NCBI GenBank assembly: GCA_964016885.1
Contig: OZ024740.1
Location: 218,922,001 to 218,986,000 of the forward strand
Reading direction: 5' to 3'
Source: Eledone cirrhosa
Taxonomy: Eukaryota
Length of the DNA stretch: 64,000 nt
In this document: positions 17,601 to 64,000 of the stretch, one piece after another
How the letters are laid out: the number at the start of each line of letters is the position of its first letter
Position numbering within the stretch: position 1 is the first letter of the stretch
The notes under the pieces: generated by a model
Seen by the model: only the letters and a program-made list of their open reading frames with translations
Database searches by the model: none
Told to the model about the DNA's origin: nothing
Translations under genes and position numbers: made by a program

Positions 17601-17784
17601 CTAGATATTTTAGCACCTCATTTACATAGAATTTGAAGTTTGTGAAAATCGTCAAAATATTGACTCCAAACATATATCTCCTTTAAACCAAACACTACCA
17701 TCTTAAGGAAGAATACATTAACACTCAATGTCCTGTACCACATTACACATTAAAAATCTTTATACTCTGATACTGCAAATTTTC

Positions 17785-18150
17785 ACAATGGCAGTGAGAC
17801 ATGGGCATTGTGTGCAGAGGACCTGCGCAGACTGGAGAGGAACAAAGCATGCATGCTCCATTGGATGTGTAATAGTAATATAAGTGAACGGGAAAGCATA
17901 AATGAACTAAGTGAGAAATTAGGAATAAGAGGGATCAGATGCTGTTTACTCAAGAGAAGACTACGTTGGTATGGTCACGTGATGTGCATGAAAGACGACA
18001 GCTGTATAAAAAAGTGCAGGGCGATCAAAATTGATGGAAGTTACAGAGTAAGTAGACCCAGAAAAACCTGGGACGATTTGATAAATTCCGACCTTACACA
18101 CACCTCTCTAAGATAATGTCACTGGACCGAGATCTATGGCGCTACTCAGT
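17785..18150 (+). mobile_element. RTE LINE 3' fragment
   Basis: ORF 17808-18116 contains RRLRWYGHV and RPRKTW, preceded by GSETW. Confidence 0.8.
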
Positions 18151-52669: not shown

Positions 52670-53060
52670 CACACTGTCAGGTAGTAGTGCTGGTGTTACA
52701 GCAAAAAAGCACCAAATTCACCCTCTAAGATAGTAGTGCCAGAGTCACGATAAAATGGTTCCAGTCCACACTGTAAGGTAGTAGTATTGGTGCCACATGA
52801 AAAAGCACCCAGTCAATCCTGTAAGGTGGTAGTGCTGGTGCTACAGCAAAAAGCACCTAGTTCACCCTGTATGATGGTAGTACCAGAGTCATGACAAAAT
52901 ACTCCCAGTACATGCTGTAAAGAGGTTGGCATTAGGAAGGGCATCCAGCTGTAGAAACTAAACCACAATAGCAACATACAAACAAGATGTGGTCATCTGA
53001 CTAAGCTAGCTTCAGTATGTGACAACCTGTCTAACACATGCAAGCATGGAAAATACGTGG
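52670..53060 (+). repeat. SINE-like element with an internal roughly 50-bp tandem array
   Basis: Repeated AAAAGCACCCAGT...CTGTAAGGTGGTAGTGCTGGTG units, then GGCATTAGGAAGGGCATCCAGCTGTAGAAAC and a GCATGGAAAA tail; inverted relative at 12780-13140. Confidence 0.65.
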
Positions 53061-54862: not shown

Positions 54863-56589
54863 AAAAAGATCAAATAAAGTACCAGTAATACACTGGGATA
54901 ATTGCTGGCCTTGTGCCAAAAGTAGAAACAATTGTTATAAAAAGATCATACGTTTCATGTCGGCTCTTCCACGTTGACATGTGTTAGATGGAACTTTTTG
55001 AGGCAATGTTTTACAGCTGGATGTCCTTCCTGACATCAACCCTTTCAGTTAGTTCTTACAACATGCAGAAATACAGTGTATCTATTCTAAACCGGCACAC
55101 ACAGCAATCATCATCATCATCATCATCACCACCATTTTTACATTGGTTTTTCCACACTTGCAGGGGTTGGACAAGTCCTTTTAAGCACAGCATCTCTTCA
55201 CTCACCGCGTTTCTCTGTGAGTTTCAGTGATTTGAGAGTAAAAAAAAATATGAATGTAAAAATGATAATGATGATGACTACATTATTATGGTAGTATGTA
55301 ATTTGAGGGAGATGTTAGTAGTTAGTTCTAGCAAGAACAGCAACCTCAAAAAGGTATTCTCATTAGCTATTCTGGAAACAGAAATGGCTTCTTTTTGAAG
55401 AAACGAAGAATAGGAAGCTTTCACTAGATTAATATGATGTCCCTGCTCATAGAATAACTATAAAATTTCTCTTCTAATTTGAGGTTTCTGAAGAGTTACA
55501 ATATTTCAGTTTTATTTAGTATTTTTTCAATAAACATGTCATAATTCAAAGTGATTTATGCAAACACATATACTTATGCACACACACACACACACACACA
55601 CATGCAAGCACACACAAACACACTCGCACATATACATACACACACAAACACACACCCAACTCACACACAAACACACATACACAAACATAAACACGCATAT
55701 ATACATACCATACTTAGAAACACACACAATTACCAAAATGATAACTATTAGGATGATATGTATGGCTTAGAAGACACTACTTTAGTTATTTAGTTGTGTT
55801 AGTTATCATGGTTTAGATTATTCTAGAAAACTGTCTTAAAACTACTACTGGTACTCATCTTACAAAAGAAATATAATATCCACATTAAATTACTGAAATC
55901 TTTGAATTATGTATTTGATTGCATATATGACCCACAGGCATATAAGACTCCACCCTTCAGTTTAGGTAATTGCAGGTATTATGGAAATGTGCAGCTAGAG
56001 TATATCAGAAGAGAAAAAAAAAAATGAAAAAACATGCAGCTAGATGGTAAGTAAAATTATACTAATAATAATGGTTTCTACATTTGGAACAAGGCCAGCA
56101 ATTTGAAGGGGATTTTGTAATTTGTATGTAAGAGCTGAAGCTATAACATTAAACATTTTATAAAATCTAGATACCAGTAGGGATGAGAATGCTTGTAAGT
56201 CAGAAAATCACACAAAAGAATCAGTCAGAACATTGGCGGGCCATCTGAGGAAGGAGCCCCGTGAGGTGGGTGGCTGTTGCAGTGGGTGTTGCTGGTTATA
56301 ATCTGCAGAAATGCTTTTGTGGTCTTATCCATGGGAGACAGCCCCATTACTACCGCACCCTAGGCCAGAGCCTAATCACGCTCCCCCTTCCCCCTCTCAT
56401 TATTCCATGACACTAGAGCCCTTGCCTTTCCCTTCCTTTTCTGTTTTTGTTTTATATTTTCTTATTTTAGATTCCATTCTTTCTTCTCAATCTAAAAAAA
56501 ATTTTTTTCTTTTTCCATTAAATTGTTTTTACTATAAATGGAAAAAATGAAATTTCATTTCTCACTCTTAGTACAGCTGTTACTTAAAT

Positions 56590-57135
56590 ATAAGTATGTA
56601 TACGTACATACATATATGTATACAGACGTACAGGAGTATGTATATATATACATACATGCACACACATATATATGTATGTATGGGTTTATCGAACATTTAT
56701 AATAATGTTCGGTTTGTTTGTAAACAAACATCCCGAATTAAGCCGTACAGTGTTCAGCAACTATCGTTAGGGCAACGATCGTTTTCAGTATACCCGGCCG
56801 ACTAACTCACTCGATATGCAAATTAGGCTGCTCAGCATAAGGAAAGTATATACTTTCAAACGTTCAATCGACTGACAGGAAGGTATACGATGCTGATGAC
56901 AGCTAATAAGCTAGAAACTAGTTTATCGTTCCTTTGTCAGTGTTGAACAAAAGGGCAACGATGGTTGCCGAACACTGTACGGCTTAATTCGGGATGTTTG
57001 TTTACAAACAAACCGAACATTATTATAAATGTTCGATAAACCCATACATACATATATATATGTGTGCATGTATGTATGTATATACATACTACTGTACGTC
57101 TGTATATATATATGTATGTACGTATACATACTTAT
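56590..57135. mobile_element. Inverted-repeat element enclosing a hammerhead motif (probable Penelope-like or retrozyme relic)
   Basis: About 180-bp near-identical inverted arms (56590-56768 and 56955-57135) ending in TA/TATG microsatellite; hammerhead motif in the spacer. Confidence 0.7.
56862..56948 (+). ncRNA. Type I hammerhead ribozyme motif (minimal, palindromic stem III)
   Basis: Stem I ACGATG(56887-92)/TATCGT(56924-29); CTGATGA at 56893-99; stem II cAGCT-aata-AGCTa; GAAA at 56914-17; stem III palindrome ACTAGT; GUU triplet at 56921-23. Stem I extends via AAGG/CCTT, ACTGACA/TGTCAGT and GTTCAAT/GTTGAAC. Confidence 0.82.
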
Positions 57136-58172
57136 GTTTTTACTATCATAGACATCAATTTACTACTGTTAATTAAACATGTATGGAGTTAGACTAGGTA
57201 GAAATATTGGTACTCTATAGTGTCTTGGTAAACATTAGCCTACCAAATTGGATGATATTTTTAGACTTTTTCAATTTAAAAAACTATGGAAAAGTGCACG
57301 TGAACTCATATGCAGTATATTTATGTGTACTAAACATTTGTTTAGTCTCACTGTGAGGATTTTAACCATGAACATATTGCAGCTACTTCAGCAACTGGGA
57401 CAAGAGCTGTTAAACCTTTTGTTACCAATTTCTATTGAAAGACACTAAGTATCATATATATTCTTTTAAAATTTGAAAATTTTGAAGATTTCAAAGGATT
57501 TAGTAATATAACCAACTTTCTCATGATTAAACTGATGTTTGAAATATAATTTAACAAATGTTCTTACATAAAATTATGATTGGCCGATTTTCAGATAAAT
57601 ATATGCAGTTATACAGAAAACCCACCTTCGCTTACATACAAACTTAAACCTACAGTCAGTAGGCATCTCTTAACCCAATATACACCCCACCCCACACACC
57701 CTACCCCATCCTCCCATTTCCGTCCACTGTAAAGTAGGTGACACAGTAAAACGGCTCCCAGTCCATACTGTAAATGTGGTTGGTGTTAGGAAGGGCATCC
57801 ATCTGTAGAAAACCTGCCAGAAATAGTTCTGTACGAACGAGACATGGTCATCCAACCAATCTTGCCTCAAGTGGGACAATTCCCATGCTAGCATGGAAGA
57901 TAGATGTTAACCGATGATGATGATGATGATGATTACTAATTTTCTTCTTCCTGATTTGTTACCATTCACACCAGTTTTTAGAAATTCTCTGTGCTTTGCC
58001 TCATGTAAGCTGCATTTCCCTTAACTCCTTTTCAATTCTTTTATGTTAGTTTTTCTTTAGCTATTTAGACTTTTGCTTTCCATATGGTGTCCATCTTAAT
58101 TCTACCTTTGGTAACCTTCTTTGGTTCATTCTCAGTCCATGCCTTAACCAATAGAATCACCAGTGTTTTATT

Positions 58173-61321: not shown

Positions 61322-64000
61322 TTTCTTTTATTTGCCACTAGGGCATCAAAAGTGGGACAAGTACAAAGGGGGGAGTTTACACAAAAAGGCGTCCTCAATA
61401 AGGAGGAGGCAATAACAAAATATAAAAATAAAATAAGATATAACAAAAAATAAAATTTATAACAAAATCCTCAATAGAGAGGAGGCGCCTTGGGGGGGCG
61501 CACACACCCCCGAAAAAGTGTGCAACCCTTCTCCTCAGGAGCACAGAGAAGGGGTGCTCCCTTGGTCTTTCATCTTCCTCACCTATAGTCTGATGTAGAG
61601 TGAAGGCCCATTCACACGGGCCATTCTCGCCACTTTCACCCATCTTTCATAGAAACGGCTGGGGTGCAGCACCTCTCTCTCCATCCTGATCCTTCTTCCG
61701 AAATGATAACGGAAGAAACGGACCAGTTGTTGGCCAGAGAGAAAGGTGCCCGACCTCAGTCCTTTCAGACGCGTCCACCATACAACCTCTTTCGCCATGG
61801 CTATTACGCACAGAAACACCGCCTCTGCTTCATCTTTGAAGGGGGGAGGCGGCTTGATCATTACAATAGACTCGGTGGTCAACCGGATCGGTCCCACCCT
61901 TGACAGCAGTTGTTCGACATAGCCCCACAGATCGGCTACGCCCGAGCATTGTACCAATGCGTGTGCAACGGTTTCCTCGTCGCACACGCATCTGGGACAG
62001 ATCTTTTTGGCGGGGTCCCTACCCGGGCGCCCGTGTCTGTAGAGCCTTTCTCGAACGGGTAAAGCCCCTCGGTAGCACTGCCAGGCCAGGGACTTCTGGA
62101 AGTTGTCCATAGGTTCCGGGCTGAATGTCCTACCGAACAGGCTGGCCAGTTCGTCCTCCTCCATGTCTAGGGCTTCTCCGAGGGCGTCGTCGCACCTGCT
62201 GCGTACCAGCCCTCTATAGAATGTTGCGGTGGAGTCTCCACTGATAACCGGATCCGCCTGCCAGAGGGCGGTGAGCGCCTGGGCACACTCAGTGTGCCAG
62301 GCGCCCAGTTTTCTCGGTCTTTGCTTGACCCAGGATTGCAGCTCGGTGAGTGAGACGAGTCTGGGAAAGGTTCGTCTCACAAACGAGGCCCACACCGGTT
62401 GTCCGGTGAGGAATACGTAGAGGTGCCGTAGCCTTAATGCGTGTTTACGCATCATTAGCCACGGCATCCCCAGCCCTCCTTTCGAAGGGTGTTGACAGCA
62501 GATGGATCTCCTCACCATAGGAGCCCGCCTCTTCTAAAGGAATTGGAAGAGCGCGCGCTCCATCTTGGTGAGGGTTTCCCTTGGGCAGGGCACTACGGTC
62601 AGGCGGTAGTAGATGACGGACATTATGTAGGTGTTCGCCACCTCTGCCCGACCTTTCAGGGATAGTTTGCAACTGGCCCACTTCTGGCTCAGTGCAAACA
62701 CCCTGTTCGTAACCTCCGCCCAGTTTTTCTCCACCTGGAGGTCCGGTCCGAACCAGACCCCGAGCAACTTCACCGGGCCCTCCGTCCAGCGTCCGACGAC
62801 GCCATCGGAGGGCATCGGTCTGCCCCTCCACGTGCCGAGTTGCAAACCGATCGACTTGTCCCGGTTCAGCTTAGCCCCTGTGAACTTTTCGTACTCCTCC
62901 AGTAAGGTGCCGACCGCCTCGATTTCAGAGGCCGTCGACACCATCACTGTCACGTCATCGGCGTAGGCCGACACCGCTTTCCGCAATCCCGGTTCCAAAG
63001 GGATGACCTGCAACAACTCCAACTTCCGCAGTAGTGGCTCGAGAGTCAACACATACAGAAGGGAGGAGAGAGGGCACCCTTGTCGGATGGACCGCGCGAT
63101 TTTGAACAGCTCCGAGAGGTAGCCGTTCACCTTGACCCTAGAGCAGATGCGGCTGCTGTGCATAGCAGTGATCCAGCCCCTGAAAACGGGTCCGAAGCCT
63201 GCCGCCGCTAGCACCGCATCCAGGTAACCATGGTTGACCCTATCGAACGCCTTAGATTGATCCAAGTTGATCAGAGCCCCACCAAAGCCGGGTTCGTTCC
63301 CAACCCTCTCTATGATGTATCGCATGAGGTGGAGGTTGTCATGGATGGACCTGGACGGGATAGCGCATGTCTGCGCATCTCCCACCAGGTTGCCCACGAC
63401 AAGCGCCAACCTCTTTGCTAGCACCTTGGCCAAAATCTGTAACTCTGTATTTAGCAGAGTTATGGGCCTGAAGTTACTTATTTCGTCCCCCTTGTTCTCG
63501 TCCTTCCTCACTAGCGTGACTACGCCCTTGGTCACAGTACAGGGAATTCTCTCGTTCTGTTGCCAGTTGCAGTAGACCGCCTCGAGGAGATCGGGGAACA
63601 AGTCCGGCATAGCTAGATATAATTCGTAAGGAAGACCATCGAGACCCGGGGATTTGCGTTTGCCGCATTGGCTCAGCACGTCCTCTATCTCAGCGGCCGA
63701 AATCGGCTCCTCGCAGGACTTCGCCTCCCTGTCCGAGAGGCGCGGCAGGCCGTCGAGGTATGGACCGAAGTCCACGTTCCCAACCGGCTCCCCGCCCCTC
63801 CCGAACAGTCGGGCAAAGTGCCTTTGAAAGGCCTCACACATCTGCTTAGGCTCAAGAATCGCCCGTCCATCCAGGTCTCGCAAAGACCGGATGGTGGATT
63901 TAGTTCCACTGTTGGCCTCTGTCACGCGGGCCCAGCTAACAGCTTTAGTCCCCTCGTTCCCTAGAGCACGTATTTTACTTCGGACAACGCAGCCTTCGTG
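61322..64000 (-). mobile_element. Tx1-clade (L1 group) non-LTR retrotransposon, 3' part, young
   Basis: GC-rich; ORF2 has RT motifs SPGLDGLPYELY, FRPITLLN, LDQSKAFDRV, QGCPLS and AYADDV, then GGLG and a C-terminal CPRC...HALVQC zinc finger; 3'UTR with AATAAA near 61327-32 abutting (TATC)n/(TC)n. Confidence 0.92.
61583..64000 (-). pseudogene. Tx1 ORF2 (reverse transcriptase plus C-terminal zinc finger) with one premature stop
   Basis: Open from 64000 (HEGCVVRSK...). ORFs 62534-63925 and 61583-62518 are in the same frame, separated by TAG at 62534-36 where FLW is expected. Confidence 0.9.

Follow-up and report, generated by a model that had tools for sequence, protein, structure and literature searches.

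The hammerhead motif at 56862-56948 (+) of the window, the whole 64,000-nt stretch of Eledone cirrhosa DNA analyzed here, probably serves a ~430-nt non-LTR retrozyme as its processing module; the copy in the window is a complete two-armed insertion, likely made in trans by a Penelope-like reverse transcriptase (RT)/endonuclease. By each feature that we examined in the DNA, the element is a non-LTR retrozyme, and it behaves like a non-autonomous Penelope-like element. The non-LTR retrozyme class and its proposed mobilization by Penelope are both already published. What the family offers is evidence bearing on which enzyme reverse-transcribes animal retrozymes, previously argued from homology and co-occurrence; the single window copy on its own is of little importance.

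Every hammerhead element described in an earlier note on this DNA (stems, CUGAUGA, GAAA and GUU) lies where it had been placed by sequence inspection. On the plus strand, a UAU bulge (56884-56886) sits directly 5' of the first strand of stem I (56887-56892), which leads into the catalytic core CUGAUGA (56893-56899). Stem II (56900-56913) consists of a C56900-A56913 mismatch, three pairs and a UAAUAA hexaloop, and includes the sequence AGCU-AAUA-AGCU (56901-56912). The core GAAA (56914-56917) and the palindromic stem III ACUAGU (56917-56922) follow, together spanning 56914-56922. U56923 of the GUU triplet occupies H17, a U in 62 of 63 subfamily-A copies, and cleavage is predicted 3' of it. The 3' strand of stem I (56924-56929) begins with U56924, where C is commoner (56 of 63 copies). 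An outer helix adds 4+7+7 = 18 pairs (z = -4.05; 0 of 200 shuffles fold as well), in agreement with the ~18 further stem I pairs claimed before. CUGANGA, GAAA and NUH thus occur in order with stems I-III, as in a type I hammerhead; at the base of stem II the standard, typically G-C, pair is replaced by C-A in subfamily A, to which the window copy belongs. As a sequence motif the window hammerhead is confirmed as real. Self-cleavage is predicted for the family, and is probably weak or dead in the window copy.

Rfam models align with the motif at low score. A 101-nt stretch gave a sole match, to Hammerhead_HH9 (RF02275) at 56875-56946 (18.2 bits, E = 0.018), so that the hammerhead match that the earlier note looked for was obtained with HH9 only and fell short of the gathering score of 52; a typical family copy scores 20.7 bits against the same threshold. 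Scanning 6 kb (E <= 10) returned microsatellite-driven miRNA matches and no hammerhead, and four loci of other subfamilies gave nothing at gathering level. Because the HH9 alignment puts the core, the stem I bulge (which falls on the HH9 internal loop) and the stem II hexaloop in register, we assign the motif to the canonical metazoan type I form, with a 6-bp helix I, a 4-position helix II with hexaloop and a 2-bp helix III (Cervera and de la Pena, PMC4209133). In the terms given by the available text of that paper, the earlier label 'minimal type I' does not hold. The family departs from HH9 in its score (18-21 bits versus 52), its 2-bp stem III and its mismatched stem II base. The minimum-energy fold predicted for the hammerhead region differs from the active fold: in predicted folding, A56913 of subfamily A permits a competing hairpin that sequesters GAAAC, and U56924 lengthens this hairpin in the window copy.

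The motif is one part of a ~430-nt non-coding unit, repeated head to tail, with one type I hammerhead in each repeat. Tandem periods are 429, 484, 466 and 422-430 nt. The units contain no ATG frame over 68 aa, and no RT plus GIY-YIG ORF between pseudo-LTRs. Searching the 3.0-Gb genome at the DNA level yielded 1,652 candidates, of which 40 were scored. The pattern CTGATGA N6-24 GAAACTAGT has 23,731 genomic matches (10 in the reversed control) and a second, disjoint pattern 17,042 (40 in the reversed control), giving 40,773 exact cores versus 50 in controls; among the matches listed, 100 per pattern, all resembled the subfamilies described below. The paralogues anticipated in the earlier note number in the tens of thousands, and the reading of the window motif as a lone decayed hammerhead is rejected, since it lies within a multi-copy tandem unit. 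If each core represents one unit, the ribozyme load is, by rough inference, about 0.6% of the genome, and it is missed by Rfam thresholds.

Subfamily A, with 911 exact cores, is a minor one against tens of thousands. Its identity to subfamily B (484 nt) is 75%, to C (466 nt) 61% and to D (422-430 nt) 90%. The stem II base is C-A in A, U-U in B and D and G-C in C, and the cleavage triplet varies among GUU, GUA and GUC across subfamilies; these natural variants of stem II and of the triplet are offered for comparison. The mismatch at 56900/56913 was noted correctly before, but because it is common to all of subfamily A (911 exact matches) while sister subfamilies carry U-U or G-C, it is a subfamily-wide state and not decay of the window copy. 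A further family, E (310 nt), was located by position and not through genome searches. At L065:6134-8502 it forms a two-armed insertion in which 6/6 full units are identical; it has U-U at the stem II base, and its identity to A (0.47) is close to that of shuffled sequence (0.44). Relatives of family E, about 70-77% similar, occur at L042 and L069, and a descriptor scan found at least four more hammerhead-like families with other stems (at L022, L024, L083, L084, L106, L109, L111 and L129). Predicted circular monomers are highly self-paired (z -4.8 to -11.7, 25 shuffles each, in part through self-complementary microsatellite tracts). Insertions are dispersed and multi-copy, lack LTRs and show target duplications longer than 4 bp, as in non-LTR retrozymes. 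The earlier suggestion of a non-coding retroelement is borne out in this form: a tandem unit with dispersed copies, of the non-LTR retrozyme or Penelope-linked kind.

Comparison of lineages argues that the hammerhead has been maintained as a structure. Among 11 natural variants, both sides change in 11 of 16 pairs and 93% of cells are paired; the covariation score is 0.532 versus 0.224 for shuffled alignments, and slid controls are all <= 0.15. The covariation foreseen among paralogues is thus present, in rows that are related, represent about five lineages and were mostly retrieved via the core pattern, so that independent subfamilies are few and the cores partly selected by the search. Stems covary and the core is invariant between subfamilies only ~60% identical. 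Family E retains core, bulge and hexaloop, with the stem III palindrome ACGCGU in place of ACUAGU. Retention of a palindrome through compensatory change is what pairing of two ribozymes via stem III would predict, and the palindromic stem III reported earlier is present and, as modeled, would fit cleavage in dimers. In predicted folding, a double hammerhead gains 4.6-9.1 kcal/mol over two monomers folded in stems I+II, but the minimum-energy structure is a different one, and a natural tandem forms the inter-unit helix with a probability of ~0. In published systems, the natural triplets that cleave fast are GUC and GUA (PMC3138052). The axolotl HHR_Amex2, with U-U at the stem II base, cleaves, and does so better as a dimer; circular RNA and dimer cleavage are reported for retrozymes in the same source (PMC7229834). 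In the available text of a Xenopus study, 8/9 predicted retrozyme dimers did not cleave (Li et al., bioRxiv 10.64898/2026.07.22.740005).

Inserted copies present a different picture. In 22 of 30 copies that were chosen without regard to the core and span it fully (8 were dropped as truncated or internally deleted), 5/242 core sites are changed, against 18/902 other sites. Core and non-core sites have changed equally, so selection is visible between source lineages and not on inserted copies, which to judge from these counts decay neutrally. Preferential conservation of the core among paralogues, as proposed earlier, is accordingly seen between subfamilies but not among dispersed copies. Variation of at least 10% occurs at N7, 10.1, 11.1 and H17 and at 0/11 catalytic positions (four contig runs, one study), where about one would be expected, a difference that is not significant alone.

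In the window, the hammerhead lies in the loop between the two halves of an inverted repeat (183 nt, 96%; 56586-56768 / 56957-57139), and a 12-nt direct repeat flanks the insertion, neither of which the earlier note mentions: the left target-site duplication at 56524-56535 shares its last 2 nt with the element end, and the right at 57135-57146 shares its first. With units numbered so that CUGAUGA begins at +1, alignment to a natural monomer resolves two arms. The minus arm (56534-56768, -) covers unit ~+65 to +305, ends at what we call the long 3' end and has no hammerhead. The plus arm (56778-57135, +) runs from +304 to +429 and then from +1 to +249, ends at the short 3' end and carries the hammerhead. 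About 50 nt between the short and long 3' ends form a tail that is found on the minus arm only (56534-56585, -), and the arms meet head to head at 56769-56779 (+), where a short filler repeats unit ~+60 to +70. Both arms carry a variant that was absent from all other examined copies of subfamily A (2 vs 68), as well as a 4-nt deletion that is rare (4 vs 61), which argues that they were copied from the same template variant. Upstream of the ribozyme, the motif ATGCAAAT (56816-56823, +), which we take to be octamer-like, is kept in subfamilies A-D and was not seen in the family E unit; it could possibly serve as an internal promoter element. The plus arm also has a private 11-nt deletion near 56823-56835. 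Given a single ribozyme and this deletion, activity of the window copy in vivo is unlikely. It was likely dead on arrival or is very slow, probably because of its single ribozyme, its GUU triplet and the competing hairpin.

The same footprint recurs across the family. In subfamily A (56 loci, from 60 minus 4 duplicates), 76 of the 100 3' ends of arms lie in two intervals that make up 6% of the unit, +243-258 (39 ends) and +299-309 (37 ends), and 53 of these 76 run into (TA)n. There are 33 head-to-head pairs; both ends lie at the fixed sites in 21, the other 12 having at least one end elsewhere, and 20 of the 21 clean pairs combine a short with a long end (p = 1e-5). Subfamily D, whose loci were chosen on a stretch outside the core, shows the combination in 11 of 12 clean pairs (14 pairs, 30 loci; p = 0.003), as do 8/8 hand-picked B/C insertions; one E insertion agrees. 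The tail is on one end only. Target duplications of 10-12 nt are clear, that is, non-microsatellite, at 3 of 33 pairs including the window; at the other pairs (TA)n masks any duplication or there is none. The insertions also include partial tandems, copies truncated at the 5' end and inverted 5' copies, and 5' ends are scattered over the unit in subfamilies A and D. The long site itself (+300 to +308) has 7 of 152 5' ends versus 3.2, a weak and post hoc excess (p = 0.04). A separate cluster of 5' ends (10 of 152, A and D loci) coincides with a self-complementary hairpin at +286 to +292.

We propose the following sequence of events. Tandem source copies would be transcribed as multimers. Pairing between neighboring hammerheads, by way of the palindromic stem III, would let them excise monomers, to be circularized by a host ligase. 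A Penelope protein would nick an AT-rich target on both strands, with the nicks about 9-12 nt apart, and the same RNA variant would be primed from one nick at the short site (+249/254) and from the other at the long site (+305). The cDNAs would then pass through the ribozyme junction, stop variably and be joined head to head. On the template, in a sample of D arms chosen without the core, 26 of 30 read through the predicted cleavage site; 4 of 30 end within +31 to +40, versus roughly 1 expected, one of them at the cleavage site itself. The read-through indicates that the template is mostly not a cleaved linear monomer, and it fits a ligated circle and an uncleaved multimer alike; on balance we lean slightly toward the circle. 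Somewhat more speculative, and short of an even prospect in our judgment, is the idea that a Penelope protein, acting as a dimer and encoded by an unrelated element, assigns each nicked strand one of two fixed start sites on a ribozyme-made RNA circle, which is copied through its ligated junction. If this is true, Penelope machinery is parasitized through RNA shape and not through shared sequence, and the genome records the mode of retrozyme insertion. The genome holds over 40,000 copies and several independent families, along with an intact, young 709-aa protein of the Hydra clade, which makes the partner and the circular template directly testable.

Alternatively, uncleaved linear multimers could be what is mobilized, the subfamily A hammerhead being nearly inert and carried as an inherited structure. 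The C-A mismatch, GUU triplet and competing hairpin of subfamily A, its minor status (911 cores against tens of thousands) and the neutrally decaying core of dispersed copies all suit such a scenario, and a lizard element inserts in vitro without need for hammerhead cleavage (PMC11167929). An invariant core with stems that covary across subfamilies ~60% identical, and the compensatory change that preserves the family E palindrome, are harder to reconcile with an idle ribozyme, and we regard this alternative as rather unlikely. It departs from our preferred series of steps only at cleavage and circularization, and concerns mainly subfamily A.

Autonomous Penelope-like elements in the same genome point to the mobilizer. 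The genome has 10,596 GIY-YIG candidates, of which 150 were scored as endonuclease candidates and 50 loci inspected. Elements with an RT, a zinc-finger linker and GIY-YIG were read as Neptune-type, a presumed clade label that leans on the published linker description, not on a tree. Short plus long two-arm insertions in (TA)n occur in 15 of 15 pairs of Neptune-type and 12 of 15 pairs of Hydra-type autonomous elements, in a set from which two microsatellite-only rows and one duplicate were dropped and in which most loci were selected on the long end. Since autonomous elements share the footprint, a Penelope RT/endonuclease is the likely mobilizer of the units, as far as insertion structure can tell. 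Duplication length does not separate Hydra from Neptune because it is masked by (TA)n. Published observations are consistent with this assignment: Penelope-like elements form partial tandems and an inverted 5'-truncated copy, with a tail usually on one end (Craig et al., bioRxiv 2021.04.23.441226), and in vitro a Penelope protein cleaves AT-rich DNA on both strands, extends the two strands and initiates internally at two sites, which bound the tail (Frangieh et al., PMC11167929). The footprint thus matches Penelope chemistry in base-level start sites and clean target duplication, with candidate open-frame proteins in the same genome.

The sampled autonomous elements carry hammerhead-like motifs of their own, different from those of the units. 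A young, abundant Hydra-clade family with an intact 709-aa ORF (L130:1501-3627 (-) and L124-L135) has an altered core, CAGAAGA, with U-U at the stem II base and a longer stem III. Hammerheads of Neptune-type elements (L104, L105, L113, L115, L074 and L098) have a U3-A8 covariant core, as described in Schistosoma (PMC4209133). No autonomous partner with sequence homology to the units was found in the 50 endonuclease loci or in six element references, and no retrozyme-Penelope head-to-head chimera was convincing. A Hydra-type RT fragment that abuts L006 is best read as the insertion site; its identification as Naiad was rejected, since the DKT and CxCX5C motifs and the C-terminal endonuclease of a related full ORF fit Hydra.

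One could envision that the unit is the detached pseudo-LTR of an unsampled autonomous Penelope-like element and that its copies are 5'-truncated insertions of that element. Such an origin would account for a two-end footprint identical to that of autonomous elements, has a parallel in the pseudo-LTR homology of 24/57 Xenopus retrozyme families (Li et al. 2026), and has room in a survey that scored 150 of 10,596 endonuclease candidates and inspected 50 loci. The unit nevertheless closes on itself head to tail and forms arrays of up to 31 units without an ORF, and the sampled autonomous elements have different hammerheads and no sequence in common with it; we therefore consider this origin for present-day copies improbable. 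A past origin of the unit from a pseudo-LTR is compatible with mobilization of a self-contained retrozyme in trans.

Long arrays raise the question of spread as satellite DNA by recombination at the DNA level. They hold recurrent variants, two of which were probed and are absent from 10 other loci, and show a partial 7-unit periodicity in one array and a 2-unit periodicity in another. In a 31-unit array (L061-L062), 8 of 14 variable columns recur among units, which leaves its production in one pass round a single monomer circle unsupported. Short arrays are homogeneous, as in the six identical E units. The recurrent variants, with the two probed missing elsewhere, indicate either local growth of the array after insertion or a multimeric source, and arrays probably do grow locally after insertion. 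A satellite model covers this growth only. As a mode of spread it is refuted by the dispersed copies, whose 3' ends are fixed and 5' ends variable and which show inversions and target duplications; the 31-unit array itself, like a 14-unit array (L063), ends with one short and one long end, and we give the model very little credence. Still less credible is a MITE or foldback DNA transposon bounded by terminal inverted repeats of 183 bp, which the long inverted repeat and 12-nt flanking duplication of the ~600-bp window feature would suggest, for arm lengths and the inversion point vary between all loci, many copies have a single arm or form direct tandems, and the ends differ by a fixed tail instead of forming symmetric terminal repeats. 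Co-option of the window copy by the host as a regulatory hairpin or ribozyme is just as hard to credit: a transcript across the locus would fold as a 183-bp hairpin, but the copy shows private decay (the 11-nt deletion), its relatives decay neutrally, and the ORF list of the window holds only retroelement-like and low-complexity frames, with no gene recognized near the insertion.

Among known systems, the family is closest to the metazoan non-LTR retrozymes of coral, mussel and axolotl (Cervera and de la Pena 2020, PMC7229834). Both are AT-rich non-coding tandems with one canonical type I hammerhead per unit, self-paired predicted circles and large duplications, and the U-U stem II base has its counterpart in HHR_Amex2. 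The units here are longer (430-484 nt versus about 170-400), and subfamily A combines C-A with GUU. The main text of that paper names Penelope-like elements as strong candidates for retrozyme reverse transcription, and we found no two-armed short plus long footprint for retrozymes described there. With the Hydra and Neptune clades, as characterized in the available sources, the family shares partial tandems, 5' truncation, an inverted 5' copy, a one-end tail, (TA)n targets and a hammerhead upstream of the 3' ends. It differs in lacking an ORF, in its canonical rather than minimal hammerhead, in a tail of 50-70 rather than 30-40 nt and in having no sequence in common with the sampled elements. 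Non-autonomous Chlamys elements such as MRC1 generally resemble an autonomous family at the 3' end, unlike the units here, and belong to a clade mostly without hammerheads (Craig et al. 2021). Li, Clavereau and Pollet (2026; bioRxiv 10.64898/2026.07.22.740005), who treat animal retrozymes as Penelope derivatives, arrive at the same mobilizer for 31 vertebrates, 3 insects and a coral, on the grounds of co-occurrence and homology to pseudo-LTRs, where our evidence is a footprint without homology. The giant squid genome paper reports 235 Rfam hammerhead hits, with no analysis of them in the text available (PMC6962438). We found no published description of this retrozyme family, of cephalopod retrozymes or of a two-site retrozyme footprint, which supplements, Dfam or Repbase may cover; the earlier description of the element as possibly undescribed agrees with the literature that we searched.

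Several observations concern the genomic surroundings. Retrozymes and Hydra and Neptune elements are nested in each other's (TA)n tracts and form clusters (e.g. L009, L065, L146, L174 and L189). A LINE fragment at 17754-18116 (+) of the window, presumably RTE-like, has counterparts beside several other loci that we inspected. A 12-nt motif is shared by window positions 52935 and 57789 (+), inside a dispersed repeat that looks SINE-like to us. At 61583-64000 (-), the window contains a GC-rich ORF2, in two frames of 488 and 316 aa, from a non-LTR retrotransposon that we take to be Tx1-like.
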